Of a stretch of DNA of 64,000 nt, positions 1 through 62,448 are shown one piece after another. Location: the NCBI GenBank assembly GCA_905178155.1, contig CAJINV010000002.1:10952634-11016633 (forward strand). Reading direction: 5' to 3'. Below the pieces are notes generated by a model. It saw only the letters and a list, made by a program, of their open reading frames with translations, did not search any database and had not been told where the DNA came from. The DNA comes from Amoebophrya sp. A120 (Eukaryota > Protista > Dinoflagellata). Positions within the stretch are counted from its first letter, which is position 1. Every line of letters starts with the position of its first letter. The position numbers were made by a program, and so were the translations under genes.

Positions 1-3000
1 AAACTTTTGCGGCTGACCTGGAAAAAGTACAGCAAACTTCCAAGGAGGAGCTAGAGGCTTTTCAAAAAGCTAGCTCCGAAGAGATCGAGTTTCTGAAGGC
101 CAAAAACGCCGAGGAGCTCGAGCGCGTTAAGCGAGAGGCCGCAGCAGAGAAAACCCGGGAGCTGGAGAAGCTGCGAATGCTGAACAGCAAGGAGCAAGCC
201 AAGCGGCTGCTGCAGCAGGAGCAGGAGCTGCGGCTGATCCTAGACGCGGAGCTGGAGAGCGCGGAGCGGAAAAAGGTCGCAGCGGTCCAGGACAAAAACC
301 AGGAATGCCAGACAGCGTTGGAAACAAAGGTAAAAGAACTAGCGACCCAGCACACCGCCGCGCTCGAGGCGGTGCAGCAAAATTACGTGGAGAAGATGGA
401 AAAGCAGCGGGCACAGTTCGACACCGAGATGACGGAACGGTTCGCCCTTGCGGAGCAGCTGAAAGCCAACCACGTGGGCGAACTCGGGAAGTTGCGCGCG
501 GACTGCACCGCCGAAATCCAGGCTTTGAAGGCGGATTTGGCGCTGCAGCACGCCGCGGAAGTCAATGACCTGAAAAAGCAGTATGCAATGACGATGGAAA
601 AGATGCAGGGCGAGCACGCGGAGAGGGTGACAACGACGCACAGTGACCATAGCGCACTTCTGCAGTCGAAGGAGGCGGATTTCCTGCAATCTCTCGCAGC
701 GAAGGATGTGGAACTAGCGGAGCTAAAGGACGCTCACGAAGTAACCCTCGACACGATGCGCAACCGCCACGCGGACGAGAAGGAATTTCTGACAGAACAC
801 CACGAAACCAAATTTTCGCGTCTCGTGGAGGAGACGGAAACAGCGAAAGACGCAGCGGACGAGCGTTTTCGCGCCACCACGAGCACGATGGCCTCGGAGC
901 ACGAGGAAAAGCTGACGTCGCTCGAGCGCGACCACGCTCTAGCACTGCAGGAACTGCAGCTGAAGGCTGACGCCGAAGCGGCCAGCCTGGTCCAAACCCA
1001 CAAGGCCGGGCTGCAGGAAGTAGAGCAGCTCCACACCAAGCATCTCGAGGCGGTCAAGCGAGACCACGCGGCCGCGATCGAGGAACTAGAGGCGAGTCAC
1101 AACACCGCAACCAGGCGCCTCCACGACGAGTACGCAAACACGCTGGACCGGGTGCACGAGGAGCAGGACGCGCGGGTCAAGGAGCTGCGAAAGGAGCACG
1201 AGACGGAACTTTTCGACAAAACCACCGAATTGTCAAACCAGCATGCGGAGAAAACGAAGAAGCTGCAGAACCAGCACGAAGAGGAGCTCACCGCGCTGGA
1301 GGAGCGAACGGCGTCGGACATCTCGCAACTGAAGGCCGGGCACCTGCGCACCACCCAGATGCTGGACCAGGCCCACCGCGCCGAGATTGACACCCTGCGG
1401 GAGGAACACAAGGCGGTGCTGGAGGAACTAAGCATCGCCAACGGCGCGGTCGTCGAGGAAACCGAGAAGAGAATAAACAAAATCGAACAGGAGCTCACCG
1501 AGAAGGTGCGACAAGTGCAGGAAGCCAAGAACGTCCTGGAGCAGCAGCGCGTCGCGGACCTCGCGGACCAGCGGGCGCAGTACGAGTCGCAGCTGAACGA
1601 CGTGCTGGAGGAACACGAGAAGGAAGTAAGCAAAGTGGAGAAGGAGGTGCGGCAGGAGTTGGAGGACGTCGGTAGACTATCCTGTGCAAAAGTATCGTAC
1701 TCGTAGTAATCGCAAACATGCATTACAAATCTTGCTCTTAAGGTTTTATTTCTCATGCTGAGAAAATTTGTAATGCATTTATTATACGAGTACGATAGGA
1801 TACTTTTGCACAGGATATAGACTCGCGCTCGAGCAACTGGACGAAAATCTTCGTGCGCAGTTATTACAATGAAAAATGCCCCCACCCCCGAACTTGGGAG
1901 CATTTGTATTCGCAAACCTTTCCAAATGAAACATTCGCCCTCTTGCATCTATCAGCATCACAGGTTTTCAATCGTGAATAGCAAAAATTTGTATTGCAAA
2001 AGGCCCCAGCAAGAGCGGCGCTTGCCATGCAAGCTATGCGATACACGCCTACATTCTGCATCAGAAAGATTCATACTCCTTTCATGCATGACAAAAAGTT
2101 TTCATTTGTAAACTTCGCATCACAAATTTTTGCAATTTAGGGGTGGGAGGCACTTTTCACTGTAATAGCAGTTCGAGGAGGAGCGCGCGGCCTTCACCGA
2201 GGAGTATCGGAAAGAGTTGGAAGTCGAACGGAAGAAGCACGGCGCGGAAGTGCAGGACGTGAAAAAAATGTTCGAGGATAATGTGGAAGAGAAGCTGAAA
2301 GACCACGAATTGGAGTTGGAAAAACTCTCAACAAACCACAACGCCCGACTGCAGGCAGAAGCGGATGCGTGGGCCGTCGAAAAGGCGGAAATCTTGGAAA
2401 AGTGCGAAGAAAAAATATCAGCCCTGGACGCACAGGTCCAGAGGTTGCGGGCGCAGCACGGTGCCGAAATTGAGTCGCTGAAGCAGGAGACAGACCAAAA
2501 GGTCGCTAGCTTGCTGGACGCGAAACGGGCGGAATGGGGCAAGAAAGAGCAGGATTTGTTGGACAAGTACGAAAAGATGGAAAACGAAAATTCGCTGCAG
2601 CTCGCGAAGCAGGCGGAGCAACACTTTGGTAAACAGCAGCAGTTCGACGAGCACGTGTCGCGCTTAAAAGAGGACTGCGACGCGAAACTGCAGAAACAGG
2701 AGCAGGAGATGGTCAACTCAGTCGCAAACGCTAGGAAAGAGGTTGAAAACGATTTCACGGACAGAATACGAGAGTTGAACGAAAAGCACCACACCGTCCT
2801 GAAGCAGGAGCAGGAGAAGGCGGTGCTCGCAGCGAAAGCCGAGAGTGAAAAGGTCGCCGCCGGGACAGCCCTCAGAGAGGCTACGTTCAAAGAGAAACTG
2901 GCGGAGGCGGCGGCGCGCCACGAGGAGGCGGTGGAGCGCGAAAGAACGGCGAGCGCGGAATTCCTCGAAAAAGAGAAGAAGATCGCAACGCAGCGCGAAA

Positions 3001-5545
3001 AAATCGCTTTGGACCAATTGAGAAACGAGCTGGAGGCGGAAATGTGGAGTCTCAAAAACGATTTGGAGAGCCAGCTGAAAGCCGAGAAGCGAGCAGCCGA
3101 GGAAATCCGATTGCTGTTGGAAACAGAGCGGGCGAGGGTGTTTGTTTTGCGAAGGCAGTGTTTGCATTTTTCAGGATGTCAAAATCTACATATCGATTGC
3201 TCCGTAAGGGTGTTTCCGAGTGTCGTGTGAAATCCACAGAATGTATGAAAAAATTAAGATTAAGAGATGAAATTAAATAGGTTCTGGAGCAGCGCAGCCT
3301 GCACGACAAGTCGGACTCCGCGAACCAATCCAAAGTCCAGGAGCTGCTGGACCAACATGGCAAGATTCAAAACGATCTGCAGAGCGAGAACAAACGGCTC
3401 AAGGACCGAATGGAGGACGCGTGGTCAAAAATTCCGAAACTGGAAGATGTCATCGCGGCCAAAACCTCGGAAAGAGCTAGCGTCGAAGCGAAAGTGCAGG
3501 AAACTGAAGAAAAGGTTCTCGCCCTCGAAACCGCAAACGCGGTGCTACAAAAGGAGGTGGTAGTGCGGGACCGCAAAATTGAAGACTTGCCGGCGGAAGT
3601 CCGCGGCCAGTGCCTGGACGAATTTGCAGTCCGCGAGAAGGAACTGCAGGCACGCATCCACGAGCTCACCACTTCCTCCGCGGCGGTGCGCGAAGCCGTG
3701 GAGCAGGAGCGGTCCGTGCATTTTGACCGCCTCACGCAGCTGCGCACGGACCACGCGGGGGAAGTGCAAAGTTTGAAAACGGAACACAGCCAATACGTGC
3801 AGTCGCTGCGGGACGAGCACCACGACCAGCTTCGGCGGAACGAAGAGTTCCTCGGCGACACGATGGCACAGCGCCTAGGTGTTATTGTGTCCAACCCGGC
3901 CTCGGCGGACGAACGCGAGAAAAAGCAACGCGAATCCTACGAAGAAAAACTCGCTCGCGTCGCCGAAGACTTGGCAGGGATGCAAAAGGAGAAAACCAAC
4001 GCGTCGACGGAAGCGGCACAGCTGCGAAGGACGTTGCAACAGAAGCAGGACGAGGTACTTGATTTCCCATTCCGAAAATCATGTATATGTTGTTTGTGTC
4101 AAAAATTTTGGTCTTGATCATGCTGCAACATTTTTGCAAATGGTTTTTTGTTCTTTTTCGGTTTTTTTGGGCGCATGGCCCAGCGTTATACCTGCGTGAT
4201 CAACGCATCGTGTATTCAAAAAATGCGACAGCTTTCCGCACTGGAGGAGGTTCGAGACGCTCTGGAGCAGCGGGTGCGCGAGTTGGCGGAGCACTCGGAA
4301 AGCCACATCAGCGAGTTACGGGAACAGTCCCGCAGAACGAAGTATGATCTGGAACTGGAGTCGCAGCGCGCGGTCGACGCAAAAACGGCGGAAGTCACCC
4401 ACTTATCACAGGAGCTCGCGCAAACAAAGGCAGAACTGGAGGAGAAGACGAGAGAAGCAGCCGACGCGTCTGAACAGTATGTCGCCACAAATTCTGAACT
4501 TCTGCAAAAGTCGATGCACCTGGAGACGGCACAGTTGGAACTTTTGACAAAGGACACCTCTCTTCAGGCGACCAACCAGGAACTCGCGCAGACTTCCAAG
4601 GACGTGGAGCAGCTGCGAACGGAGGTGAGCCGGCTGTTTTCCGAGAACGCGAAGATGCAGCGCGACTTGGACGACAAGGAGGCGGAGCTGCGGCAGAAAA
4701 CTGCCGAGTTGTTCAGCGAAAAGGAGCGGGATGTCAACAACGCGGTGGCGGCGAAGAACAGTCTCGCCAAACTGTACGATAACATCCTGGCCGATGAGTG
4801 GGCCGCGCACGGCGAGGTGAAGGCCGAGCTCGAAATAAGAACGATTTCCTTGCTCGAGGAAGCCGTGTTGCAGAAGGACGGAGGTCTGGTGACAACCGAC
4901 GGCGCGGGAACAGTGCTAGTATCCGCGAACGCGTCCGCAACGCCCTCCTTGCTGCCCACACCCGGCGGCGGCGGCGGCGACCGGAGCGCACATGAACGGG
5001 CAGCGACAGCTACCTTCAACGTCAATCCAGTGCACCACCAGATTCGGGGCGTGCCACGGGGCAAAGGTTCTTCGGGAAAAGGCAGTCCGCTTTACTACGC
5101 AGAGCCGCCCGGTGGAGCCGGAGATTTTGGCTCAGAGTGTGAGTCGACCACGACTACTAGAATACAACTGGCGCCCCCAGTAATGAGGTCTGCTGTAGTG
5201 TCCGCTTCTTCGTCGAGGTGGAATCGTGATATGCAAGTAAGTGCGGATCGTGAGCGGTCGTCTCCTCACGAACAGGACCACCTCGTCGATGCGTACGTGG
5301 AAAACTCAACAGCGACGACGTCAAGCAGTAAGCTGTTTGACCCCGAGCACTACGCCGAGGCGGACTGGATTCGCCGGAACCAGGTGTTGCAAGCGGACAA
5401 CATTCGACTCATTGGTCTCGTGGCGGAACTGAAGGCAATGGTGGCGGCATTGCGGAAAGAGCTGAAGAACTCGGAGCGGCTCCGGCGGGAGGAGGCGGAG
5501 AGTAACCGGGCAAGGAGCAAGAGCTCAGCGTTGTCCTGGTGGTGA
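1..5545 (+). CDS. Giant coiled-coil protein, 5'-partial, 5 exons in window (approx. 3-1677, 1823-1861, 2173-3137, 3281-4054, 4232-5545)
   Basis: E/K/Q/A/H-rich heptad ORFs 177-1706, 2217-3230, 3410-4117 and 4148-5545 join in frame after removing two TIR elements (EDVGR|LALEQLDENLRAQ|FEEERAAF) and two GT-AG introns (3138-3280, 4055-4231). Ends SALSWW-stop. Confidence 0.85.
1678..1817. mobile_element. Introner/MITE-like element, family A (140 bp), 5-bp DR TAGAC
   Basis: TIR TATCCTGTGCAAAAGTATC...GATACTTTTGCACAGGATA. TAGAC at 1673-1677 and 1818-1822. Excision restores the frame. Confidence 0.92.
1862..2167. mobile_element. Introner/MITE-like element, family B (306 bp), 5-bp DR GCAGT
   Basis: TIR TATTACAATGAAAAATGCCCCCACCCC...GGGGTGGGAGGCACTTTTCACTGTAATA. 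GCAGT at 1857-1861 and 2168-2172. Excision gives RAQ-FEEER in frame with ORF 2217. Confidence 0.92.
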
Positions 5546-7285
5546 GCGCGATTTGCTCACTCGTGCTGTGTTGCAGTTCCCCCACTCAGGTGGAGCGAGA
5601 GTAGGACAGTGGAATCGCGGCGGAACATCAGAGGTATGCGTGCTACTCACGTAGGTGCTTGTAAAATGATTTTTCACACCTTTGCTAAGTGCAAAAGGAC
5701 AACTGAAAGCTATATATTTTGTATCAATTGACGGCTGTGGAGCTGGAGGTCGCAACGCCACTCACGAATTATACTTACTCAATTTTTCGACTCAATTTCA
5801 AATCGATGCTGTTGGCCAATGCCACAATAACCAAAAGTTTATCTATGGACATTATTTTTTCGTTATAGTGTCGACTTATTTGTGCTCCGGTCGGGTCTAC
5901 AGCCTCGACGCGTGCTAAAGTCCTTATGTCGCTTCTTCATCAAGAAAGGGAGAAGGCAAGGAGTGTACAATCAATCATGAATGCTGTCTCTGCTCAGTTG
6001 GAGCAGCCCAGAAGTGCACCCTCGAGTGTTGTATCATTGGACTGGATGAAGTATGTACAATTGGAGAAAATTAAAACGAGATCAATCCGCTGCCGGTGAA
6101 ATGGTAGTACTTTTTAGCGCAGTCAGGTCCCGTGCATTTCCATAGTTCATCCTGTTTTCGTCAGGTGTGGGCGTTAGACATTAGTCAGTCTGGTAACCAA
6201 ATGAGACGAGGTTGAAAGGTGAGCACCACGTTGGCTCGGATGGATTTTTGACAAACAACGAGAGAACCATGAGAGAAAAAAAATTGTCGACGGAACTGCG
6301 TCGACAAAGCATCACAGTAGCGGTTACCCTGTAGCACTACATGAACCGATGCTCCTACAGAGGATTGCGCGCGATCATCTCGTTGAGCTTTCAAGATTGA
6401 GTGCGAAGCCGACGCAAGTAGAGTTTGCTCTGGTTTGCTAAAAACAATCCTGGAGCGCCAATGTCAGTGTGTGTGAGATCCTGATGGAGAATGGTCTACG
6501 TCGGCATACGTGCGGGCTCAACGCTAACGCCATAAATTAGTTTCAGGTGAAGTTTCTTACTTGGCGTTCGGTTCTACAGATGGAGTTTTCGACGATCTTC
6601 TATACAAGCCTTATTTGCCCATAGATTTTGGTCCGCTACATGATCTTGGTGGCACATGGTCATGCGTGCCATGCATGAAAGGATATTGAGGATTTCCTCT
6701 GCTGGCATCTTAGGCATCACCATCAGTTGTCGAGCTTGCTGCCTCATTCGGCATCGGTGCGGCCCCGGCTCTCCTGGGACTACAAGAAATTGGCCGTCGC
6801 TGCAGCAGTAGTCTCCGCATCCGTACTGGAAGCTGGTGGGGTCCGCGATCCGACCGCCGCAAGATTGGGGCGCCTGGCTACTGTGGGCGTGGGGGAGATC
6901 GATGGTGCGGGGGCGCGCTGCGGGGAAGAGCTGGGGCGGCCGTGGGAAAAGCGCGGGAGGAGCACGGCGCCCAGAACAAGGGCGCGCCGAGGCCCGCAGG
7001 AGACTGAGGCGGCCCGAGGCCCTTCGCCCGGCCCTCGCAGGCAGGCCAGGCGCAGGGGGCCCGGTGATCTCGGGCGGCCGTGCCTGCGGTGGCCTAGGAA
7101 TGGAGGCAGTCGCCCACGAAGGCCGCGGGCCAGTCTGCCGACTTCGGCGGCCGGCCCGCGCTTGTGTGGCGCGGCTGTTCGTTGCCGCTCGGCCCGAGGT
7201 CCTCGAATGCGCGCTGACGCAGCTACGGCCAGTGAACGACGTAGCTCCGCCGCCCCGAACGAGTCGGAGAGGGCTAGGGCCGAGC

Positions 7286-7840
7286 TGGATCGTCGAACGA
7301 GTCCTCGACGTAGCTCCGCCACGGCTTGTCGAACTGGTCGCAGGGAATTCCGGCCGAGCAGGGTCATCATCGTCACCAGCTGCAAGGCGTGCCAAGGAAG
7401 AAGACGGCGTGGATTACCCCTGGCTAGTGCGGACGGAAGTGCGGGATAGAGCCAAGAAGCTGAGTCGCGACGCAACGGCATTAGAACTTGATGACGGCCG
7501 CGGACTGCCCCTTATGCGGCGGGAAGAAAATCTTCTTCGTGCATTCAGCACAGCGTCATCGACTAACAGTTATTCATGGATAGCGCAAAGAAATGCCTTT
7601 GTTTTTGTTGTAAAAACGCAAATCCACAACCGCCACTCAAGCGGTGATCAGGACCATGAGGATCTGCATTCGTGTTTGATGATGTTGTGTTGTATATGCT
7701 GAGAGGACGCCAGTTTTGCATGGCATTAGCCCTCAGGTGGAAGCAGCGCAAAAGTTTCGCCTGCCCGTCCAGAAGTTCATGGATCGGGGGTCGAGTCCTC
7801 GACGTAGCTCCGCCGCGGCTTGTCGAACTGGTCGCGGGGA
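7286..7840 (+). repeat. ~61-bp dispersed direct repeat (7286-7346 and 7780-7840) beside a very GC-rich island (~6830-7260)
   Basis: TGGATCG.....CGAGTCCTCGACGTAGCTCCGCCRCGGCTTGTCGAACTGGTCGCRGGGA occurs twice, 494 bp apart. A partial third copy (GACGTAGCTCCGCC) lies near 7238. Confidence 0.8.
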
Positions 7841-8681
7841 CTGGCGAAATCGTGCGCGTTGGTTTGTGCTGCAGAGCATGGGAGTGGGCTGCTACTTACA
7901 CAAAAGCACATGCGCGGTAAAGTAGTAGAGTGTGCGCATGTTGTGGTCGTGGCAGCTATTGTCTCCAAAGTCGTTTTTGATGAAGGCGCGGTAAAGTTGA
8001 AGAGCCTCTGCCTTCATGCGCCGGCCGCCAATTTATGGAGGTTTGTATCTTCATCGGAGTGTATCTCACATGATTGTAGGCTTAAGCCTTTTAAATCCAA
8101 TGCAATCTCATCATGCGCTAGCGCTTCCGTTTCTTGACACATGATTGGAAATGGATGTCGATGTGTTCGCATTGCCGAATCATGGCGATCGTTTCGACGA
8201 GGAGTAGATGAACGCAAGAGAGGAGCGAGCGAGCGTCCCTAGGTAGGACCTGTCAGAGAGCGCTTACAACATGTTGTCATTACCCGCTTTAGACAATGAT
8301 TTTGTCATTGTCGTGCTGACAGCAGTTCTAGTTCTACTTGAAGGATCTGCTGTTCGTTTCGTTTCCGCTAAAAAGCAACAAGGACAAATCATCCAAACTG
8401 GCCGGCCCGTGCTCTCGATGGCGTTGTCGTTTTCGCTTACAAGTATGGACCTCTTGCGCCTTTCATTTCGAATGGTAGAAAGTTAGAAGACATAGACGAC
8501 TTCGAATCGCGAAGAATATAATTATCGCGGCAACGAGATGATAATGAATGGGACATGATGTCACCCACTTTCCCGGCCAGCTATTGCGACTACGACACGT
8601 GATTGAGATTTGAGTGTGGATTCAACGTACTTTATCATCTTTCATGCGGCAAATTTCCTCGTAATTCTGATCTCCATTACC

Positions 8682-13817: not shown

Positions 13818-16800
13818 ATGGGCGGACGAGAGTCGTACGCCAATCAGGTCGTATCAAGACGTCGGTCCGTCCCCGCCGCGTTTGTAACTGCGGACGCTGC
13901 AGCGTCGCAAATGAGAATGATATCTGGACTAGCGGCAGTTCTCTTCCGGCTGATTTTTCTGGAGCTCCCGTCCCTCTCCGAGTCGCGGGTGCAGTTATTC
14001 AAGTTGCAACCTACGATCACAGGGAGACCGTCCCGTATACCACCTGCGCCTCTTCGTTCACGCGGTTCAGACAGCACTTCGTCTGCCTCCGCGACGACAA
14101 GCGGAACCACTGTGACCGAATCCGTCGCTGAGCAAGTAGAGGATGATGAGCCAGTACTCGCGCGGTCCCGGACAAGAAGACGATCTGGACCGGCCGCAGA
14201 GACTGACAACTACGCGATTACCGAAGACGTAGACAATGCCGGGCGCGTGATTCGGAGCGTCAATTTTGCGCGGCCGTCGGATGGGATTGGGCTTGATGAC
14301 GCGCTTTCTTCGCCGGAAAACGGGTTCGACGGCACAGGAGCCGCTACTAGGCGTCGCGGTGGAACCGTATCTGGATCTGCTGAGCCAGCGGAGGAGAACC
14401 GCGGAGCGAGGTCTTCGCAGCTGGGGGCCGCGAGATCAGGTAGAAGAAATAATGCCGCGAGACGGGCGCAAGTGCGTAGTGGTACTGATGCAACCTCTGG
14501 GGCAAACGCCAGTGCAGGGGCGAATGGCACAAGAGCTGGAGTGGCAGCCAAAGACGGCCCGGACGCTAGAACGGAAGAACATGCCGCTTGCAGTCTCCCT
14601 GCGGTGGACGAGTTTCTGGTGCGATCTCTCAAAACGCAGCGGGAGCGGCGACAGGAGGCACAGGATCGCAACTGCGGATTCCTTCCCATCCGATCAGTGG
14701 CGGACCACGAAAGACTGGCGAAGCGCCTAGAAGACTGTCCACACCTGGCGGATCAGGTTCGCCCTCCTGCTGAAATTCGTCTGGTCGCTTGTAGTTTCGC
14801 TTGAGACCTTTATTCAGCCCCAGTCAGTCTTTCTTGTGTTTGAATTGCTTCGGCGTTTCTTTTGATCCCTACAACTAGTTTCGGTTCTTTCATTTAGCAC
14901 TTCTCATTGGGGGTCTTTCTCGGAACAAAGTGATGTCTTCAACATAATCAGTTACCGAAGCTCTGCAGTCCGCAGCCGCACACGGGAAAGGAGCTTTACA
15001 ACTGCTTGCTGATGAACCACGTGCCATCCGAGCTTAGTTGTCCGATCTCGTTGCAACTGCTGACCAAGCCGGTACAGATTCCGGCTGACGGCACCAAGTT
15101 TCATTTCGAACAGGACTGCCTCGAGAAGTGGTTCGCGAAAGAGAGAAGCAAGCCTGCCCGCGAAGAGGGGCAGCCGGTGCGGTTGACGCATCCCCTGACC
15201 AGGCAGGAGCTCTACGGCCCCGGCCCCCACATGCAGCCGGCGTGTGCGGCGTTCAGAAAACAACTGAAGGACTTCGACAACCTGTGCAAGCAGGTTTCTC
15301 GCGAGCACTGCTACGAAACCTACGAGCGGCGAAAATACTTGGGCTCAGCTACGACTTGTGGCAGCGGGTGCGGCACATCAACGGGATCGAGTCTCGAAAT
15401 GCTCGCCTCGCGCTGCGGTGGCGGCCCAAGCATGTCCAAATCCCAAAGGCGGCGCGCAAGCCGACGGCAGCGAGATCGTCAGGAGCGGGAATCGCGAGGC
15501 GGAGTGGCAGTAGATGATCATGAAGATGAGGCACAATTAGAAGCTGCCCTCGACGCTGAACTACCTGCGCGAGCAAAAGCCGCTGCGACCGAGAATACTA
15601 TACAGCCAATCAGTGGTCGGACTGCGCCAGGCACTCTGCTGGACGACCCCAGAAGTACCAGCGCGTCGCCAGCGAGCCCGCGTTTGGCTGCTTCTCGCCC
15701 CCGCAGCGCCAGAACTACGAGCATTACAGGGTCTTCCGACCACCCGGAGAACGTGCAGCGGATACACGACGAGGACGAGATCCATTCGGTGCAGTCCCAT
15801 TCAGTGCCCGAGGAGGACGCAACACCCATGGCGCTCGGCAGGTCTCGATCCTCTGATAGAGCTGCGAGCCCGGGGCGGCTCCTGCACGAGTTGCACCGCG
15901 GGTCGGGGGGGACAGCGAACGCGTCTGGGGCCACCACCTTTGCCGTGTACGACGGCTCCTCCTTTGAGATTCCTTACGATGATCAGAACGCGGATGCGCC
16001 CGACGGGGGTATCGAAGAGGCGACCGGAAGGACGGAATCGTCCGGCGGACTGACCACTCGGTCAAGCACAGCAAGTAGTTACAGCAACTATCACCTGCCA
16101 GCCTCCGCGAGCAGCTCCACGATTGCCACGCTGACAAGCAGCCCCCTGCTGCGAAGCACAAGTAAGCGGAGCTCGCCAGGTACTTACCCATATTACGCGC
16201 CAATATAAAAGAAAAAATGGCTGCTGTGAGAGCGAAGCGATTCTTTGCGGTTTAGGATTTAGCGAAGCGATTCTTTGCAACTTTTGGTTTTGCCGAAGGC
16301 AGACATTTTTGATGTCAGTACAGAATAAATCTCATCTCTTGTTGCTTTTGCTGGTCGTGTTGGACTCAAAGAAAACAAAATTTCAGACTCGCCGGTGATC
16401 TCTCCGCTGGTTTTGGACGGTGACATTACCTCTCTTTCGGACGACGACGGCGAGGAAGAGGACGACGAGGACGGTAGCAGCCAAATAGACACGAGCAGAG
16501 TGTTGGACGAGCGCACGAGCTGCACCGACCAAGAAATTGAGTGTTTGTCGCTGTTGCTGGGGTCTTTAGACTTGCAGGCCGAATGCAACCATCGTCACGT
16601 GGAGGAGGTGCTGGAGCAGACCCAAGCGCGAAATAACTACCTTGCCTCGCTCTCGAAGCAGCAGCGGTACATGAAATAGAAAACGTATGCTAGAATACGC
16701 GTAGTAGAAGTGTAAAGTAATTCGTTTTCGATTTTGTCCCGGTGCAGCATCATTTTCGAACAAAACAACTTCGGACAACACGACTCTCGCACCTCTATCC

Positions 16801-17955
16801 AACACAGAACCACGCTCGCGCGAACTCGGACCAACGACCCGACCGGGCTGGCTCTTGAGTTCTACGTGAAGACCAAGACTGCACCGAAGGAGGTCTTCGA
16901 AAAGTCCGACGCAAGCTATGGCGTTCTCAAACGTTACATTCTCAATTGTTACATGATTTGTAATACAAAACGAGCATCATCATCAACATTCACAAGGTGA
17001 AGCCACTTCGCATGACAAATTTTGGAAAGGCTAAACAGCACCTAAATCCGTGCGGAATTTGTGATGCTACAGGTGGAACCTCCCTGCTTTGACTTTTGCC
17101 ATTCTTGCATCACAAATCCATGTTGGCTTCGGTCCGCCTGACTCCGCGACCCGGTGGCCTGACCATCTGCGGAAAGGTGCCCTATGGGTTGCGTTTGTGG
17201 TTTCTTTCGGTCGGTTTAGCATCACAAATCCATGTAACATTTGAGAATGTAACAGTTGAGAACGCCATACAAGCAGCGACACGGAGGATGCGAATCGGTG
17301 CTGCTGGTTTTCTATCAAATGCAAAAATGTCTGGGTCTGGAAGAGTCATGCTGTTTTTGCATGACGCAGAAGGTCTGGCATGGAAGCTCTAGCATCACAG
17401 GTTTCGAGAAGCGTTCGCCATGCCGAACCCGCATGACAAACCCCTGATTTTGGTGACAGAAAGTGGGCAACTTTTGCTGCATATGCATGAGAGATTTTTC
17501 TGTGTTCTGAAATGCGCATCGCAAGTTGCAGGCTAACCTTCCAGACCCAGACATATTTGCATTCCATATTTTCGCCTTTGAAACGCATCTTACGTAATCT
17601 CCCCGCGGTTCCCCGCGGCCTGCGCACGCCTGCGGCATTCTTTCGTTCTCCGCGGAGAAGTAGAAGTAGTACTGGTAGAGCTAGTGCGAGCACAGAGGCC
17701 GCGAGGCGTGCTTCCTCGCGTCTAGGCTTTTCGCGAGAAGGTCACCCGGAGTCTTCTGGTGGTAGATTTAGTAGTGGCCCCACAACTAGCACCACATACG
17801 CTGGCGATGGCGGAAATGGCGCCAGCCACATTCTTTCAGCGCCCGGAGGTGCCGGCAATTTTAGTGCCTCTGCTTCTAGCACTTCCACGCCTGCGCAAAT
17901 GGCCGGAGCGCCACTGACGGCTTCCCCGCGGCGGGTGTCCTCCTATGCGCTTTAA
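13818..17955 (+). CDS. U-box domain protein (putative E3 ubiquitin ligase), exons approx. 13818/13911-14756, 14952-16179, 16387-16666, 16808-16916, 17275-17312, 17574-17955
   Basis: VPSELSCPISLQLLTKPVQIPADG..FEQDCLEKWF....THPLTRQEL matches the U-box pattern. GT-AG introns 14757-14951, 16180-16386 and 16667-16807, plus two TIR elements whose removal gives KSDAS|SDTEDANRCCWF|SPLKRILR. Confidence 0.8.
16231..16278 (+). repeat. 18-bp direct repeat x2 within an intron
   Basis: AGCGAAGCGATTCTTTGC at 16231-16248 and 16261-16278. Confidence 0.85.
16917..17269. mobile_element. Introner/MITE-like element, family D (353 bp), 5-bp DR CAAGC
   Basis: ~48-bp imperfect TIR TATGGCGTTCTCAAACGTTACATTCTCAATTGTTACATG...CATGTAACATTTGAGAATGTAACAGTTGAGAACGCCATA. 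CAAGC at 16912-16916 and 17270-17274. Excision is in frame. Confidence 0.92.
17313..17568. mobile_element. Introner/MITE-like element, family C (256 bp), 5-bp DR TTTTC
   Basis: 31-bp TIR TATCAAATGCAAAAATGTCTGGGTCTGGAAG...CTTCCAGACCCAGACATATTTGCATTCCATA. TTTTC at 17308-17312 and 17569-17573. Excision is in frame with ORF 17512-17955. Confidence 0.92.
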
Positions 17956-20561
17956 GTATAACAGAGGGTAGCGAGGATCCGACACGTTGAAATCAAAGCG
18001 CTCCTCCTGCTCTTCGATTATTGGAGATAGGCAACACTCACACTGGCACGGCGAGCTGAGGTGCTGCTGGCTCAATATAGTTCAAATTTTGTGCAACAGC
18101 ATTTATTTTCCAGTCCCGTTTCAGGCGCACAGCCCGCACCGCGAAGGTGTCGCGGTTTCTCGAGTGCAGCCGCGTTGCGTCAGCACGCTATCGCTCTGCT
18201 CTCTGACGCCTTGTGGGGAAATTGATCTGCAACTTTGCCATTCGTATTGGAAGCGAAGGTGCTTCAGATCAGGTTCTATGTAAGTATGACGTAAGTTGCA
18301 GTTCTTCTCATCTTCTTGCCGCGTGATTCAGATAAAAGTTTTGTGGTTGTTTGTTCTATCGGCCTTTCTAGAGTAGTTGCTTGCGAAATATTCCTAGAAA
18401 CGTGCGTCATTTGTACATTAGGTTGCTTGAAGGTAGACCGCTTTCACCGGTAATCAGTAAATGTAACGGGTACTGTACCTGTTCATGGTTCATCTACAGT
18501 AATATCGTTTCGCTTTCTGCTCGCAGCGTCCCACCTGTTACCGTTAGAAATAAAGGAGTAAAGTAGAAAGACGGCAAGCTGCAAACAATGCTCCTGTTGC
18601 AACAGCAACAGGAGTTTACAATGAATGTATTTTTCGGGCTGCAAAATGAAAAAGTGCAGAAGCAAATGGTTTCGTTCAAAATGCCTCAAACAAGGAGAAT
18701 TTCAATCTTAGTTATTTTTGAATGCGCGGGCGACATCACCTCATGATTTAGATTTATTGTAGTACGCTTTTGTTCATTTACATTTTCTTGGTCTGTCATC
18801 ATCTCCTGCATTAATTTGCAAAACAGATCCTGCCCCTACATTTATTACTCGCCCGCCGCCGCAGTATCGCGTGGTGTTTACAATCCACCCCGCGACCGCA
18901 GCTGCGAGAGTTGGTGCTGCTTTGGTTTCCTGATGGGGTCCTGCCTCCTGCGCCGAAGTACAGAGCCATTGTGAACAACATCTTCGACTTCTACTGAGTA
19001 GTATCGGGGGGGCAACAATCTGTCATATCATCATGGTGAAAGAATCGTGGATGGAAATGAATGTTGTCAACAGGACAAGGTGGTAACAGCAAAGAATTAG
19101 TCGCATTCGCAACAGTAAGGCACCTTCGTCCATTCGCTGCAATAGTTGGAACAGTCGTGCTTGGGCTTTCGCGTCGTCGTGATCGTGGTCGTGTTTCAAT
19201 TTCAGCTGCAGACGCAAGGCAACGGGCGAGGAGCGATGTTATCTTTTTCCAAGAGGGAATGCGAATCATGAAGAAAGCTTGAGTAGAAAGTGGAAACTAT
19301 ACAGAATTGAAATATTCGCTAATGTTAACGTAACGGTATCAGAAACAATAAATAAAGTAGTGCATCTGCATGCCCATGCAGGTCGTTGTTGATTTTGGGA
19401 GTACAGGTATCCTTTTCTGCGAAAAAAAAACGTCTACTTTCTTGTACAATTTATCCATCTTGGTTGTGAACTGCAAATAAAGCTGCACTGTTATGAATAT
19501 GTGTACGTTCAAGTAGTTTTGAATACCCTGGGGTTCGAGCTTTTGTTGGGTCGTGCTGATGCCATTTCCCGAAAATACAGAAAAAAACGCTTCTCGCTGA
19601 GAATAAAGTTTTGGACCGCAAAAAATATTTTTCGACAGTCTACGTCAGAAATTTTGTGCTGGGGAGCGCAGCTCCTTCTCCAATTCAAACGTATATTACG
19701 GTTAAGGTTACAAATGAAGCCGTTTGATAAATGTCAATGAATAACCCGCTTTAGTTTTGTCAGGTACTCGCAGGAAGGTACACAAAGACAAAGAATAAGA
19801 AAAAACAGAACCTACGTGAAAATTTCTTTCTCACAATTTTGGCTGAAAGTGGCGCGAATCACTTAGAGTTAGGACCGTGCCGAAGGCGGGGAGCTATTAT
19901 CGAAACTGGTAATCAGGAGGTCTGCCACCTCGTGCTCTTCTCGAGGCGACTCTGATCTATGTAAAAATGATTTTTGTTTGAAGTAGATGAGTTTTCATCG
20001 GCTTTCTCGAACAGTGATCTTTCATTGATTTCGGTAAATGAACCTGCATCGTTGTCACCCTGTCGACTTCTCGAGAAAGTACGATTTAATACTGGGATGA
20101 AAGGTCTTGGTATTAGTTCTTTCGTAAAGAAAGGGGTGGGATTCGTGAATCGTTCCTGGTTGGGCCGCCATTTGTAGCAGGTACTTTCACAGCACTTTTC
20201 GTAGCGTCAACTCGTGGTATCGTCAGTAGTCGGTAAGTATTTCTTTTTCCGATGGCGGTGTAGATGTTGTAGAAGAAATTGTGCAGCACGTAAACACTTG
20301 AAGAAGTAGGAGAATATTTGGGAGGAGGTCATCGACCATGCTCGGTTTTAAAAGTAAGCCTCTAATGGTAATGATGATTACGTATCGGCAGCGATGATAG
20401 TCATGGCAGCTGTCAAAGAAGTGACTATGAATGTCTCTGCCTCTTTACAGTAGAAATTAAGATGAGTTCCCGCTCGTGCTCTATTTTCCTGTAAAGAGTA
20501 CTGTTCGAAGTAGTCCAAGACAAGGAGGCAGCTCTAGACTACTGCTAACTCTGCCCAGAAA

Positions 20562-23500
20562 ATGACGAGCGTCTACAATCAGGAGCAGAACCAGGCGCGA
20601 ATCATTGCCGAACTGCAGCGACTCCTAGCAGAAGAACGTCGGCAGAGATATGAAGTACTTCGTGTGCTTTTTGCTTTTCGAGTACTTGCAAAATCACATC
20701 ACACTGCTTGCATTCCTGATTTCAATTTTTTTCCGGTTTTGTGGTTGAAAATCCAAACAAACTGTACTTCCCAGCATCTGAACTTTCCAGGTGCAAGAGC
20801 GTTTGGATTCGCAGGACGCGCTGGTCAAGGAGGATTTGCGGTTGTTCCGGGATGTTCAGCAGGAGGCCAGCGTGGACCGGGAATTTCGGCAGCACCTGGA
20901 GGACCGTATCTCCGTGCTGGCGACGCTGGGTGACCGGGCGGAGAACGCCCGGAAGAAGGCTTTGTATCACGTGTTCAAGGGGACCACCGCGAGCGTGGCG
21001 AACGTGCTCTCCGTGGGCGGGTCCCACGTGAAAAAACAGCTGCTGGCCATGGACGAGCCGGACCTCGTCAGTGATGTCCAGGCGACGACCGGGGGAGCAG
21101 GGATCAGCATGCCTCCGTCCTCTGCGACGACCGCTAAGACGCCGCTGGAGCGAGTGGAGCACTGCCTGACCCGCGCGGAGACGTCGTTTGCCGCTCTTTC
21201 GGACGTGAACATTCTCCGGACCAACCGGCTGTACGAGGAGGAGCTGGGGAAGCTGCGGAAAGAGGGGAAACAGCTGCTGAAGACCTGCCAGAACGTCATG
21301 GCGCACATCAACGACCTCGGGCGCGCCCTGGTGAAGGAGGAGCAGCTCGTGGAGAAGGCGCACGCGAAGCGGATCTCGGTGCGGAACATGGGGAAGCGAC
21401 CCTTCTGGCAGGGGGAGTTCATGGGGATGAACCAAACGCTGCAAAACTTCAGTGCGAATATCAGTAGCTTCTCGGAGTCGTTGCATTTCACCGAGCGCAT
21501 GCTGCTCCGGTTTAGCACCTCAAAGCGCGACAACGAGTTCTTCTACGACACGAAGTCGAAACAAAGTTCTACTTCCAAAGCCTCCTCGAAAAACTCCTTT
21601 CACCAAAATAACTCGGCCGGGACGCCAGCGACCAACGTGGGCACAGCGGGCGCAATGTCGACGGCGAAATTGGTGACTGCGATGGAGAAGGGAATTAACG
21701 TTTCGACCCACCGGGCCCACCGGCGCACCGCCGAACTGTTTCGCCAGCCGGACCCGAGTCGCGGGAGCTACTCGGAGCGCGTGGACGCGTGGGGAAGTCC
21801 GACGAAACGAAAATTGCTGTCACAACCGAATTTAGTGGTCGCTGACGGAGGCGTGAGTACGACGGCGAACAGCAGTGATTTGCAGCGCAGTCTGTACCTG
21901 AACGGATACTTCACCACGATGAACGCTTCGGTTGGCGGCGCTGCGAACCTTGCATCGGCAAACGTCTCGAAGACCCCGACCACCGTCATCAACGGCACTG
22001 CGACGCCGGTCAACGTCGGCCTGGCAGCGCAACAACAGCAGCTAGGCCAAGGCGTCACGCGCATGAGTATGCAGGGCTCCGTTGTGAACGGCATCAACAC
22101 GGCCACATCTACTGTGCAACAAGAACGTGCGGTGCTAGGTAATTCGTCCGACGGAGGAGCACCAACTGCTGGCGCTGCCCTTCTGGGAGCGACAAATGTC
22201 GAAGTTGATACCAATGCAAATGGAGATTACACCAACACTCTCCAGCTGGACAACACGCGCATGCAGCGGCTGACAACCATTTCGAGCGCCGAGCAGCCAT
22301 TCGTCGACCGGCCTTTCGCATCGGCGCACGAGGAATTTACGTTCGAGCCCAACACGGGGGCGGGAATGAACAAGAACCCAACGCTGTACTACGCCGAGAG
22401 CTTGGGAAATTCGCATTTCGACCTGAATGTACCCGCGCACCACGGCGCGCCGCACCCAAACAGTGCGGGCACTGGTTATGTTGCAGCGTCCGAAATAAAG
22501 ACAACCTCTGCACCAGCATCGGGAGAAGTTCTTGCAGCTCCGGGCGGAAGCTCTTCCGAAGTAGACGACAATCTTCGCCTCCAAGCCACTACAGAAGTTC
22601 CCCTGTTCACTCAACAGCGTCCAGGATCTGCGGGGAAGATCCGTTCGGTTGGAGTGGCAGCAGTCCCTGCGAATTCAAATTCTTCGTCGTCTTCCTTGTA
22701 TGTGACGCGCCCGGGTGTGACGGAGGGGCAAACTGATCTGCACAGCAAGATCTCATCCACCGTGCCGACCTTCGATCCCCGCGGCGCTTTCGACTACTTG
22801 GAAAACAATAGCTCGAGCGCAACTACTTCCAGCGCTCACGCACAACGGATAAACCCTAGCACAACAGGAGCTGGTGCTGCGAGTTTTTCCATCGTGGAGA
22901 GGATGCGACAGAATCTGACCGAAAAATCCAAGATCTCGAATCCTCCCTCTGTTGTGACCACGCCGACGGAAGAGCAAAGCAAAGCAGTAGGCACGACGAG
23001 CAACGCAACAGGCACGGGGTCATCGTTCAAGAAACCCCTGCTGGCGAGCAACCCCTTTTCCAGTACACCGGCGCCCACGGGTGTTGCTGCGGAGCCGGCG
23101 ACGGCTGTCGATCGGGACAACAACGCGGGAGCTGCTGCTGGAGTGCCACCTTCGCAGATGAACCTCTTTGAGGATGACCATTTCTTATCGAAAACTCCGC
23201 AGCCCAACGGAACAGTTTTTCTCACAAACATGAACAAGAAGACACCGAACACCAGCGGCTTGGCGTTAGACATCAGGGACTTCATCGAGGGTGAACTTTC
23301 ACCTGAAAAGCGCCCGTCGCAGGCTGTAAATACGACAATTTCCGCTCCTGCAGCCGCTTCATCGGGGGTCGAACAAAACGAATCAGTCAAACAGTTTGCC
23401 GAGACGTTTCAACTGGACCTGCACAGCGCGTCTCCGCCGAAGTACCAAGAATTGCTCGGATACAGCAGTGCCAATGCCGCCGTAGTAGAGCCAGTAGTTG

Positions 23501-23631
23501 CAGCGGGTAATACCGCATCACACATCAAATTCGAGCGTGCCACCACCCTGGGTTTGGAAGCCGCAGACCGGTCCAGCCGCGAGCTCTTTGATTTGCAGCT
23601 CCCGGCCCAAAACGACTTTGACGAACCCTGA
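20562..23631 (+). CDS. Hypothetical protein (~977 aa), N-terminal coiled coil plus long S/T/A/N low-complexity tail; exons 20562-20654, 20791-23631
   Basis: Phase-0 GT-AG intron 20655-20790 joins RQRYE to VQERLDSQD. Long open frame with coding-like codon use. Confidence 0.8.
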
Positions 23632-25092
23632 GAAGTGGGCTTCCTACGGGAGGACAAGTCAGGGCATCGGAAGTGAGTTCAAGATGATCGTGAAGCAAGG
23701 AGACCGTTTCCGTTCAACTTGCTGCACCATCCAAGCCGACTTTCATTCCCTGAGAAAATAAGACCAGTAGACGAAATAGAATTTAACGATAGACATTCAG
23801 TCGCGTATCCGTTTCCTCCGGTTCCGTACCTACAACCTAAATCAATTACCTGCACTACGTAAATACAAACGGAAAATTGTTCCCTACCAAAGATTAAAGA
23901 AATCACCAAGTAAAATATCCAGTACATTATACATAGTGCCACCGTTGTTTGACCTTGTTGAAAGACCACGTACAGCAGTTAGTTTCCGTTCGCTTGAAAG
24001 ACTAGAAAATTTGTTGATATGGTGCAGATATCTAGTTGAGGACTCTATCTCTATGTATATGGTCCTTGATGTTGACGTCTTGCTTTTGCGTCCTGAATGT
24101 AAATCTTTGTTTCGTGCAATTTCGTAGCTTTCTCAAAAATATGACTGCGAGAAACTACGCTAACAAATGTCATTTGTTGGGTTCCTACCCTGTAAGTATG
24201 TGATGATCGACGCAAAATAAGAATAACCCTGTAAGAAAAAATTTAGTTGCGCAATGCCAATGCTTAGGTGTATCATCACAAAAATCACAAACGCAAGCGC
24301 ACAGACACGACTGGACCTTGAGCCGCACGCTGACAAATCGAAGAGATGTAGTTGACTCAGCCAGTAATTCTTGTGACTTTAAGCAGACTATGGGCACGAG
24401 GAGACCAGTTTATTTCTCGCTGCAATGGTTATACCTGCGTCTTCGATCCTTTCGGGATGGCAAGTATTCACGAAGAGCTTTTTTTGGTCCGGAGTTTTGC
24501 TTCCCAGAATGCTGGGAAAAATGATCAAAGATCTCTCGATGTTGTCCCGGTTGCAGGTGTCGCATCGATATATGATCCTTCCTGTCCACCATTTTGCCGC
24601 CCTTACTTTTTACCACTACGTATTGATTGTTGATGAGTCAACATCTTCTCGTCCGTTCACAGATCACGCAACGAGTGCCGGAATCAAGTCACCAGTGAAT
24701 TTTGTCTTTCAGGCTGATCTTTGTCTTTCCTAAAGAGCCGTCCTCTAGTCTTTGGTTACGTTTGCATTTTTTCACATCCCGGTTTTCGTGCAAATTTTGC
24801 CATTTTTTAAAGGTTACTTCGAAGCTAAGAAAGTCGCTCTCTTAAATATCTATATTCATTGCGTGAGATATAGAATAGAGGCCGACGCATACGCTTCGTC
24901 AAATGAATTGATCGCGTTCTTTACATGAGTATTTAAACTCCTTGCCTTAGTATGCGCGGCCCAATAGCAAATACATCAAAATGGTTAGTGGGGAGGAGGT
25001 TAGGCTTCATCTAGTAGCTTCTAGCCCTGTTGCCGCCGATCCAGAGCCTTAGAAAGATAGTGACCTGCCACCCACCCACTGGAAGCTGGAAA

Positions 25093-28000
25093 ATGCTGTG
25101 GCCATGCACTGACTTGATTTCTGTATCTATTCCGCGCAAGCATTACCATGATCTCGTCTCGCGAGTGATCCTGATTCTCCTGTTCGGGATTTTTGCTTCG
25201 CGCGATGCTTTTAGTCTTGTCGGGCCGGGAACAACCACTCCACACGCGTTCTTTGTGCACGGAGGCTGGATCCGTCCCCGCAACAAGAAGTTCCATCTCT
25301 GGGTTCGGCAAGGTCCGCGATCTACCCGGGAAGCTTCGAGCACTTTTGCGAAAAGCGGGGGGCTGCCCATCCTGTCGGTGTACACGGGTCGACGGTACAT
25401 ACGGGTCCGCAACGACGCGAAGCTCGTCACGGATCACGAGCGCTCTCTTGCGTATCGACAGGGCGACGAAGAAAATGATCCAGTGAATAGCTTCCTGCAG
25501 AAACAGCGACAAAACCACATCACTCAGATGACAAAAACTTGTAAGTCGGAAGCTGTCCTATGAACTGCAAAAGTGTCGTACTCGTATAAATGCATGACAA
25601 ATTCCCTCAGCATGAGAATTCAGATTTGTAATGCTGATTTGACTTAACGAAAAGATTTGTAATGCATGATTGCAATACGAATACGATACTTTTGCACAGG
25701 ATATGTCCGGTATGATGACAACTTTGACCACGTGGATAACATTTTTCAGCTCGGAGCCGATGCCGCAGATGAAGATCCGTACAACAAGGGTAATAATCAG
25801 TTTGGGCGGACGACGGAGTACAATGAGAAGGAAACGAGACAGCGCGACGCCGACGCACAGGAGCAGCGATCTCTAGCCTACTCTTTGCTTCCCGGCTACA
25901 GGTACGCGGAGCTGCGTTGGTGTACGCCCGCGAACGTGCGGAGCAAGGTGTGGACGTGGATAACCACCGCCATGGTCCAGGTACCCTGCATCGCCGTGGA
26001 CTTCCTCCGTGGGCGCCAGGCGGACCTGCTGCTGCCGGAGGAGGAGCGGAAACACGTAGAGTTTTTCGCTGGTGGGCGTCATTTGTACTCGTATCAGACG
26101 GGCGAGCTGCTGGACGACAGGTACGAGCGTATGTTGTTCGACATTGACATGCGGGAGTGGGAGCACGTAGACCTGCGGCAAGTGCAGCACGAATACGATA
26201 AGGCACAGCTGATCCAGCGCTTTTTTCGCCACGCCGGGCTGCTGAACGGTATCGAGCTGGTGGCGGACAGCGAAACTTTTGGCCACCGCACGCTGTTTAT
26301 CAACTGTAAAAATGTCTGGGTCTGGAAGAATTCATGTTTGTCATGCTTGTCCGGCATGACTCTTAAATCTGTCATGCACGTTACCCAAGAGCTCCGCTTT
26401 TCTGTGATGCAGAAGCGCAGTTTGTCATGCAGAATAGGCAACACCTAGGAGCTCAGAAACTTGTCATGCTGAGCCAGCATTTGTAGCCTCATCATGAGAC
26501 GCCACCCAGCATCACAGGCTTCCAGACCCAGACATTTTTGCATTTGATACTGTTCGAGCAGCGCGTCATGGGGCTGTGGTCCAAAGTGTTGACCCAGCAA
26601 ATTTTTCAGAGCGAGGCGGTGTTGAAATACTTCGAAGAGTACGAGGAGGAGACTGCAAGCGAAGAACGCAAAGCCGTGGGCAAACACCGCCACACCACCG
26701 ACTGGCACTGGCGGCGGGGGGTCATGAAGGTGCAGATCTCGCTGAGCGAAAGGGAGGAGCAACGCTGGCGCCGGCGGTTGCACCGTCGGATAACGAAGGA
26801 AATCGCTCAAGAAGAAAATAGCCGGTCACAGGGGCGGCTTTGTGGCAGTGGTGGTGCAGGGATAAGCTTTAGGAACGAAGACGGAGGTGAACCTCTTGTT
26901 GTCGCAGGTCCGCGTGAAAATAATGCTGCTCCTGCTGCTGCACCTTCCTCTTCGTCTGTTGATGTTCTGGCAAACAGTCCACCACTGATGTCGTCCACTT
27001 CGTCTCTAGTAACTTCGGACCGAACTGGCGCCCGTGTTTTTGCATCGCAAGGATCTGCACCTGAACTCGCAACACGGACCAAGAGGAACTTCGACGCAGC
27101 AGCGCCTTCCACCTTCCGCTCTTGTTGTCCGGACAAGTGCGCGGCCACGAGGGAGCTCATCTTCTCGGAGCTGTCTGAGTGTCGTGGATCAAGCATGACG
27201 GCATCACCCGACGGACTAGACGGCGGCACGGCGGCCCCACTTTTGTCAGCCGAAGCTGAGTTAGATGATCATGGTACGGCATTGGAGCCGCGAGAGGCGC
27301 ACGTGATCGACGATTTTTGCAGCACTGGTGGAGCAGGACTCTTTTTGCAAGAAGGTCGAGAAGGCCGTCGCGCTTCTGCTGCCAGGAGAATGAAAAGTAC
27401 TGCATCTTTTTCTACAACATCCTCAAATGGAGAACACCCTTGTTTGTCAGATTCCTGTCGCAATCGCTCGGAGCAGAATCCCGTCCGTTTCGAGGACGAG
27501 GAGGAGGGGATGGAGGGGACGCGTCTGGTGGAAGATTGCAACGACCGTTGCAGGAGTTTCCCAAATATCAACACGGAGGAACAATCAGCGGCCGAACTCT
27601 CCGCGCGCGGAAATATTAACTGTAGAACTTCCAAGACCACTACCAGTGCCAGTCTAATAGAGAATTTTCAGCTCGAGAGATCATATCGGCAACTATCGTC
27701 ATCTTGTCCGCGCTGTCCTGAAGAAGCCATCAAGATGAAGCAACATGACTTCGATGAGTGCGGGTTTTGGAATAGCAAACGAGAGGAGCTCGCGCCACCA
27801 CAGCTGCAATTTTTACGAACACAGTTTGAAGGTGTGGGATCATCCCATCGGATGAACACCATTTTGCTGCCCGACTCAACATCGAGATCTTCAGTAAAGC
27901 AAGTAGGTTCATGCGATAGTGGTTTTCTCTCCCGGTGTGGCTCGGCTTCAGTGGCTTCGACCCACGCACCAAGTAGCGCATCGGCGACGCCCTTACTGAG

Positions 28001-62231: not shown

Positions 62232-62448
62232 AATCTCATGCCCTTGGCCACAAGGGCATGAGATTTTGGAGCAGGCGACTCTCAGGCCCTTGGCCCCAAG
62301 GGCATGAGATTTTGGAGCAGTCAAAATCTCATGCCCTCGGCACCAGGGCATGAGATTTCGAGGCCCGGAATCTTATGCCCGTGGCCACAAGGGCATGAGA
62401 TTCGGGGGCAGACAAAATCTCATGCCCTCGGCACCAGGGCATGAGATT
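62232..62448. repeat. Tandem array of five 33-34 bp palindromes (period ~46 bp)
   Basis: AATCTCATGCCCT(T/C)GGC(C)AC(A/C)AGGGCATGAGATT at 62232, 62278, 62325, 62369 and 62416, separated by 11-13 nt related linkers. Confidence 0.92.

Follow-up and report, generated by a model that had tools for sequence, protein, structure and literature searches.

Symmetric introner elements occur in both orientations within genes of Amoebophrya sp. A120 and may be removed from RNA by a machine other than the spliceosome

When the same intron-like element lies forward in one gene and backward in another, what marks it for removal? The question is raised by a window of 64,000 nucleotides from Amoebophrya sp. 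A120, a marine parasite (contig CAJINV010000002.1, positions 10,952,634 to 11,016,633), where a first-pass annotation had placed one repeated element, family A, in opposite orientations within two plus-strand genes. Copy A1 occupies 1678..1817 (plus strand, 140 bp, core family-forward, a TATC-type terminus at both ends) and is flanked by a 5-bp target-site duplication (1673..1677 and 1818-1822), while copy A2 occupies 25559..25703 (minus strand, 145 bp, reverse orientation) with its own 5-bp duplication (25554..25558 and 25704-25708). A1 aligned with the reverse complement of A2 over 135 columns (72% identity, 81.5 bits, E = 5e-18), compared to a best match of only 50 bits and 61 columns in the same orientation, and the global score was 135 reversed vs. 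103 unreversed (shuffle maximum 11). Because the element is quasi-palindromic, the orientation call from this pairwise comparison alone would be a modest one. A profile of 62 family cores settled it at the level of sequence, scoring A1 higher forward (50.8 vs. 10.6 bits) and A2 higher in reverse (79.8 vs. 21.8 bits), and the opposite orientations were thus borne out by alignment in both directions and by the profile.

Each copy has TAT..ATA inverted ends and folds as a hairpin on both strands, long in A1 (z = −10.2 and −10.8 relative to shuffles), with z = −7.4 and −6.5 in A2. Stop codons are present in all three plus-strand frames of both copies, and GT/GC-AG borders are impossible for either in any of six registers. 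Further elements in the window are C1 (1862..2167, 306 bp, another family), D1 (16917..17269, 353 bp), F1 (57895..58100, 206 bp) and three members of family B, of which B1 (17313..17568, minus strand) is opposite in orientation to B2 (26298..26549) and B3 (57570..57831), both on the plus strand. All eight window elements have a perfect 5-bp flanking duplication, including C1, D1 and F1, and Rfam gave no match among four loci.

A1 and C1 share a host gene at 1..5545, the 3′ part of the gene for the 2232-aa coiled-coil-like protein P0003 (residues 645-2232), and A2 and B2 lie in a gene at 25279..28556, with its first codons further upstream, for the 964-aa unnamed A120 protein P0002 (CAD7936489.1), in which no Pfam family was found. 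Removal of the element plus 5 nt opened plus-strand frames of 558/365 codons at A1 and 180/863 codons at A2; at A2, an antisense frame (about 200/179 codons) also opened when 3 or 6 extra nt were taken out. When removals with 0-11 extra nt were compared, only the addition of 5 nt yielded a peptide found in the deposited P0003 and P0002, in agreement with the earlier claim that both hosts are on the plus strand and both frames are restored, and the exact junction is present in the deposited proteins at A1, C1, A2 and B2. Any insertion that duplicates its target would restore the frame in this way; a restored frame by itself is no proof of removal. These four sites are introns in the A120 gene models, whose construction relied on aligned transcripts, since canonical tools had failed. 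Element copies elsewhere also sit in open, coding-like frames, including those of a topoisomerase II gene and an AAA ATPase gene; Pfam matched 13 of 136 flanks, with no copy matched on both, a single short-query protein search returned no match, and a search for an A120 counterpart of the L080 protein gave none.

Contig-level RNA evidence concerns B1 and D1 only, the removal of A1 and A2 being read from the deposited proteins, and it comes from runs whose RNA character is our guess and not on record. One RNA-type contig match ends exactly at the B1 border, and two such contigs agree to the base with the loss of D1 and B1, each along with one duplication (143 = 143, assuming a 30-nt contig overlap). 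Raw reads of two RNA runs, X9 and X10, did not extend to the genes of the window. Word shares in four of these runs were 0.85-0.86, between the values for A1 removed (0.83) and A1 kept (0.87). Some RNA-type contigs contain elements and two intergenic bins had zero depth, so the elements appear transcribed. We consider it very probable that removal takes place at the RNA level.

The elements are the already published introner elements of Amoebophrya A120 (Farhat 2021, PMC7789003). As far as the text and one supplement file of that study go, they agree in organism, TAT end motif, inverted repeats, hairpins and non-canonical borders, with no difference in kind; a legend there (Fig. S19) gives the direct repeats as 5 bp, and no transposase is reported for A120. 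Our copies have the published TAT followed by seven variable bases and three or more A, a border repeat within 3-5 nt, and membership of a repeated family with non-canonical splice sites. They are also short and non-coding, with inverted ends, a duplication of constant length, many copies and both orientations, as in MITEs or non-autonomous TIR DNA transposons. Host-strand orientation, the constancy of the 5-bp duplication, a 4-nt internal loop and a shared internal motif did not turn up in the same text and supplement file. Added here are the orientation tallies, the absence of a GT/GC-AG excess and of a strand-biased motif, and the shared internal motif.

We then compared orientation with host strand across families, mostly in a second assembly, which may not be A120 and which supplies most of the statistics given here. 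Both orientations were found in 11 of 14 families. Among 152 family A copies, again mostly from the second assembly, 70 were sense, 45 antisense and 37 uncalled, and in family B the sense to antisense ratio was 22:14. We did not accept a 2:1 orientation bias in family A, as it was confined to copies picked by exact pattern (60:30) and absent in incidental copies (9:12). GT/GC-AG borders were allowed at just 8 of 140 sites (antisense control, 5 of 140), while AG anywhere in the duplication was somewhat more common on the sense strand (67 vs. 49 of 140). After correction, strand bias was seen in none of 499 5-mer pairs and at no terminal position out of 45 (128 copies); the 5-mer test is blind to a motif that occurs on both strands. 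The motif GCAT[GTC]ACAAAT was common to all families. Canonical splice sites and a strand-biased motif were thus looked for and not found. The claim of orientation-independent removal held in part: family A and most other families have copies in both orientations, and copies of either kind are removed, but a machine meets identical 5′ and 3′ sequence whichever way inverted ends are turned, so orientation independence is compatible with a directional machine.

Several features bear on where the signal may lie. Both element strands fold far better than shuffles, and both borders are placed at the foot of a stable stem; arm positions 4-7 are paired in only 68-120 of 222 copies. Family A duplications were perfect in 96 of 123 copies and had one mismatch in 24, or overall a mismatch in about one in five, and at the unselected end of family A changes affected 2 of 387 terminal sites vs. 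26 of 645 duplication sites (p = 0.016). Duplication sequences look unselected. Their mismatches gave no consistent cut register; in one copy a stop codon in the right duplication means that the left duplication is kept at that position. Recognition through a hairpin, one of two routes raised by the first-pass annotation, is plausible; on the transcribed strand G-U and A-C mismatches were equally frequent (154 vs. 154), which lends no support to RNA pairing, and tests per family were non-significant or reversed.

We put at about even the prospect that these symmetric-end elements, together with one duplication, are excised from pre-mRNA by a predicted cut-and-ligate machine independent of the spliceosome. 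The elements would have spread as non-autonomous DNA transposons through a staggered 5-bp cut with little target preference. Once transcribed, the folded-back element would be recognized by its terminal TAT/ATA, stem positions 8-22 and the internal motif, and both borders would be cut in one register and ligated, perhaps by an RtcB-type ligase, by analogy with other systems. Nuclease and ligase are predicted only, RtcB had no match in the supplement file of Farhat et al. (PMC7789003), and it may be transposition, not removal, for which the common motif and the conserved termini are needed. More tentatively, we envisage a second precise and orientation-blind RNA splicing system beside the spliceosome, in which one factor would bind GCAT[GTC]ACAAAT, the TAT/ATA feet would be cut and exons joined without error.

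An adapted spliceosome lacking U1 could instead read the inverted repeats as signals, with TAT serving at the 5′ end, ATA together with a T-run at the 3′ end, and a motif found on both strands supplying the branch A, which we regard as a serious possibility even if somewhat doubtful. That U1 snRNA was not detected in A120 favors the spliceosome-independent machine; A120 retains U2AF65/35, U2, U4, U5 and U6 and a nearly complete set of spliceosome proteins, and a review interprets Amoebophrya as a case of spliceosome adaptation. The Fritillaria spliceosome removes MITE-derived non-GT-AG introns, and introners of Polarella glacialis and Aureococcus (bioRxiv 10.1101/2020.10.14.339549) are likewise inverted-repeat transposons with target duplications that serve as spliceosomal introns whichever way they lie, one orientation being the more frequent. 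The lack of a wobble signature of RNA pairing and the sense-strand surplus of AG also agree with this explanation. However, the Polarella and Aureococcus introners use a G-initial donor, an AG acceptor and specific duplication sequences, whereas in A120-type elements GT/GC-AG is at background (the 8 of 140 sites above) and canonical U2 borders are lacking; unselected duplications and borders at the foot of a stem also count against an adapted spliceosome.

Two known systems provide precedents for removal directed by inverted repeats. In SOS splicing, which depends on AKAP17A, CAAP1 and RTCB, inverted-repeat pairing triggers removal of DNA transposons from mRNA, rarely at GU-AG, with RTCB ligating, but junctions are imprecise, carry indels and are often out of frame, whereas the modelled junctions here are exact; the comparison covers anatomy and modelled junctions, to which minor isoforms are invisible. 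Nonconventional introns of euglenids (PMC12501133, PMC11282704) are likewise a majority non-GT-AG class with terminal inverted and direct repeats and a probable MITE origin, and circular excision products have been demonstrated for them; they differ in their CAG/CTG end motif and belong to a distant lineage.

The other route raised earlier, programmed DNA excision that leaves one 5-bp pointer at some life stage, seems very improbable. Ciliate IES excision acts on DNA and requires separate germline and somatic nuclei; it shares with our elements precise removal, one retained flanking repeat and symmetric ends, but here the DNA keeps the elements. In one likely DNA run, represented by contigs, which lose rare forms, flank continued into element at five borders at 41-46x, the single-copy depth, and the element-less form was not dominant. 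No element-less joint occurred among 15 joints listed of 265, in a table swamped by other element copies once the DNA run was included. DNA excision is unlikely because the contigs retain the elements, and the apparent transcription of elements and the mismatched duplications also speak against it. Amoebophrya is not known to keep a germline nucleus apart from a somatic one, and an excised form would therefore pass to the progeny and the elements would be lost. In its favor are the strand-symmetric anatomy and the equality of G-U and A-C, which fits double-stranded recognition.

Hairpins with short direct repeats are a classic substrate of reverse-transcriptase template switching, and such an artefact, with elements staying in mRNA and being bypassed by ribosomes or inactivating genes, would suit the hairpins and repeats found here, RNA evidence that is cDNA-based throughout and a 5-nt duplication that always includes one whole in-frame codon, but it is highly improbable given that A1 and A2 have stops in every plus-strand frame, yet copies sit in open, coding-like frames, and that duplication mismatches are mostly at third positions (16 of 22). 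Translational bypassing was rejected, as all six first- or second-position mismatches fall within the codon that take-off and landing must share.

In A120, over 60% of 66,565 introns are non-canonical. For the elements among them, it appears that the removal signal must be symmetric and carried by the element, with the duplication sequence free, and mutation or pull-down could be aimed at the terminal trinucleotide and the one internal motif found in all families. A machine other than the spliceosome would offer a natural and exact means of taking hairpin-flanked inserts out of RNA, and would parallel, in a lineage far removed from euglenids, the system found there. A true second splicing system would be an exact, genome-scale counterpart of animal SOS splicing, through which DNA transposons inserted at tens of thousands of sites would become harmless introns.

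The first-pass annotation placed two copies of a family A element, A1 (1678–1817) and A2 (25559–25703), in opposite orientation within + strand genes. This is correct: A1 aligned to reversed A2 at 81.5 bits (135 aligned columns, 72% identity) compared to only 50 bits in the same orientation. Because the family A element is nearly palindromic, polarity was checked with a profile built from 62 family A cores, which scored A1 at 50.8 bits forward and 10.6 bits in reverse, and A2 at 21.8 and 79.8 bits, respectively. A window scan returned 60 candidate inverted-end pairs, eight of which combined TAT..ATA ends with a perfect 5-bp duplication immediately outside (starts 1678, 1862, 16917, 17313, 25559, 26298, 57570 and 57895). 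Three of these form family B, with B1 (17313–17568) reversed relative to B2 (26298–26549) and B3 (57570–57831), while C1 (1862–2167), D1 (16917–17269) and F1 (57895–58100) belong to other families.

Several further repeats occur in the window. Another short repeat, without TAT..ATA ends, lies upstream of the A2 host gene (24996–25079) and shows raised depth and loose ends in DNA and RNA-type runs, and an array of ~45-nt palindromic units with TCTCATGC at 62214–62456 resembles the small hairpin of the family A core. The region 61444–63758 also holds a 29–31 nt sequence repeated at 61444, 62730 and 63728 and ~180 nt duplicated at 62954 and 63127, and a GC-rich stretch carries a 61-nt direct repeat (7286–7346 and 7780–7840, 90% identity). 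Among reading frames of at least 300 codons in the whole window, 17 of 19 are on +, which fits the one-directional gene blocks described for A120 in the available text of Farhat et al. 2021 (PMC7789003).

We assessed orientation against host strand using a 22-nt family A end as search pattern, which recovered at least 140 loci over 38 of 64 parts scanned, every one from assembly JACKZZ01; this assembly has at least families A, B, C, D and F in common with the window and is not necessarily A120’s own genome. For strand calls, a codon model was trained on the window; in leave-one-ORF-out evaluation it called 123 of 178 chunks and was right for 122 of them. Local and regional calls were concordant in 121 of 122 cases. 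The 315,653 bases of loci and window contained 290 TAT..ATA elements with duplications, compared to 2 in shuffled sequence; 272 were unique, comprising 14 families and 14 singletons. Over the window and these loci, 11 of the 14 families occurred in both orientations. Family A had 70 sense, 45 antisense and 37 uncalled copies (152 in total) and family B 22, 14 and 5. The sense bias in family A (p = 0.025) was limited to copies that the search had picked through an exact match at the usual end (60:30), those met incidentally being 9:12, and may be an ascertainment effect or slight but real. Pfam matches on the called strand were obtained for 13 of 136 flanks, with no copy matched on both, and placed antisense copies in AAA ATPase and aminotransferase genes, and copies in sense orientation in genes for topoisomerase II and photolyase. 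The type II topoisomerase gene at JACKZZ01 locus L053 contains two family A copies. Among the 152 copies, the type of end did not always follow the polarity of the core, with TATC at both ends in 10 (A1, 1678–1817, included), TATG at both ends in 12 and swapped ends in 3; this uncoupling, found for example at A1, L001, L020, L036, L067, L078, L110 and L128, suggests conversion or inversion between element arms.

Deleting the element and one duplication left long + frames at both A1 (558/365 codons) and A2 (180/863 codons), so that both host frames are restored as originally described. A restored frame alone is not proof of removal, because any insertion with a target duplication has the same effect. 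The exon between A2 and B2 matched a single database protein at 100%, P0002 (CAD7936489.1, ‘unnamed protein product [Amoebophrya sp. A120]’), and the gene hosting A1 matched a second protein, P0003. When removals of the element plus 0–11 nt were tried, only +5 gave peptides found in these proteins, at A1, C1, A2 and B2. A120 gene models derive from transcript alignments, according to the accessible portion of Farhat et al. 2021 (PMC7789003), and elements in both orientations are thus introns in the published annotation. Removal at A1 and A2 is supported by these deposited models, and contig evidence comes from D1 and B1. Exons of ~40 nt separate adjacent elements of different families at 1818–1861, which is read through in P0003, and at 17270–17312.

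Signals that differ between strands were not detected in the 128 copies not selected by pattern, either as strand-biased 5-mers (none of 499 passed correction) or as differences between the two ends over 45 positions. With any of the six equivalent registers allowed, GT/GC-AG borders were possible at 8 of 140 sites; the antisense strand gave 5 of 140. The first-pass annotation took the presence of both orientations to mean that removal is not spliceosomal, which does not follow, since inverted ends display identical signals either way; removal by an adapted spliceosome is a tentative possibility, and we give even chances to spliceosome-independent cutting and ligation. A1 and A2 form long hairpins on both strands (z −6.5 to −10.8), but no wobble signature of RNA pairing was detected, the transcribed strand having 154 G-U and 154 A-C mismatches, which argues against recognition of an RNA hairpin. 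Arm positions 1–3 are paired by search definition, 4–7 pair poorly (68–120 of 222) and 8–14 well (190–214 of 222); the usual mismatch at 4–7, seen in all families, leaves a terminal helix of 3 bp, followed by a 4x4 loop and the stem. At the unselected end of family A (129 copies; 13 matches without an end found), changes affected 2 of 387 terminal sites, while the duplications had 26 changes in 645 sites (p = 0.016 when tested against half the duplication rate, base composition uncorrected). A frame could be assigned to 22 of the 38 duplication mismatches; 16 of these are third-position and 14 synonymous, a pattern that fits ongoing selection on host proteins and does not fix the cut register.

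Run contigs were compared with the window over 16500–27000 only. In X6, guessed to be an RNA run, the GT-AG intron 20655–20790 is missing from one contig, and a contig match starts exactly at 17569, preceded by 40 unmatched letters. Removing a GT-AG intron together with D1+5 and B1+5 accounts exactly for the unmatched lengths of two contigs (143 = 143), with a contig overlap that we assume to be 30 nt. Excision from DNA is very improbable: in X1, a likely DNA run, single-copy contigs (41–46x) pass from flank into element in five contig/border cases (D1 left; B1 right; A2 left; A2 right with B2 left; B2 right), and no element-less joint appeared among 15 joints listed of 265. Depth in X1 element bins reached tens to hundreds of thousands and does not equal copy number. 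In X9, a run without coverage of the window’s genes, 52 raw RNA-library reads join one foreign flank directly to a family B end (at 17313 and 26298), reflecting either an element retained at a single locus or DNA present in that library. We give least credence to template switching as the source of the junctions, with the elements bypassed or the genes dead, and leave a small remainder of probability unassigned.

Removal from RNA together with one duplication is the reading we hold with high confidence. Judging by their anatomy, the elements most likely spread as non-autonomous DNA transposons, and would be transcribed and then cut out of the RNA with one duplication. The motif GCAT[GTC]ACA, chosen by visual inspection of families A and B, occurred 197 times in the 79 other elements, where 50 dinucleotide shuffles averaged 4.2, and 9 times in the 62,080 bases of the window that lie outside elements. 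Its extended form, GCAT[GTC]ACAAAT, occurs at ~13/kb in every family on both strands and ~0.15/kb outside elements, and is a candidate target of a transposase or removal factor common to the families.

The available text of Farhat et al. 2021 (PMC7789003) describes introner elements with inverted repeats, 3–5 nt direct repeats and, in A120, an end motif in which TAT is followed by seven variable bases and then at least three A, reports that in A120 neither a transposase nor U1 snRNA was found, and leaves the removal mechanism open. In the portions available, Gozashti 2025 (PMC12130899) lists 58 A120 families and the Gozashti 2022 method (PMC9860276) permits opposite-orientation matches, while PMC11453091, PMC12005148, PMC13326754 and PMC12787238 add nothing on orientation; no statement on the orientation of Amoebophrya elements was found in literature whose coverage is incomplete (subscription journals, figures), so absence is not proven. 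As far as the accessible texts describe them, Polarella and Aureococcus introners also occur in either orientation, but use G-initial donors and AG acceptors taken from the repeat or duplication (bioRxiv 2020.10.14.339549); SOS splicing is triggered by inverted repeats and ligated by RTCB, but is imprecise (PMC12779559); and euglenid nonconventional introns are the nearest functional parallel (PMC12501133; PMC11282704). The A120 elements are real and were correctly observed, and belong to a class already known. Useful constraints on its mechanism come from the counts of the two orientations, from the absence of strand-specific signals and from the motif common to the families, none of which we found in print.
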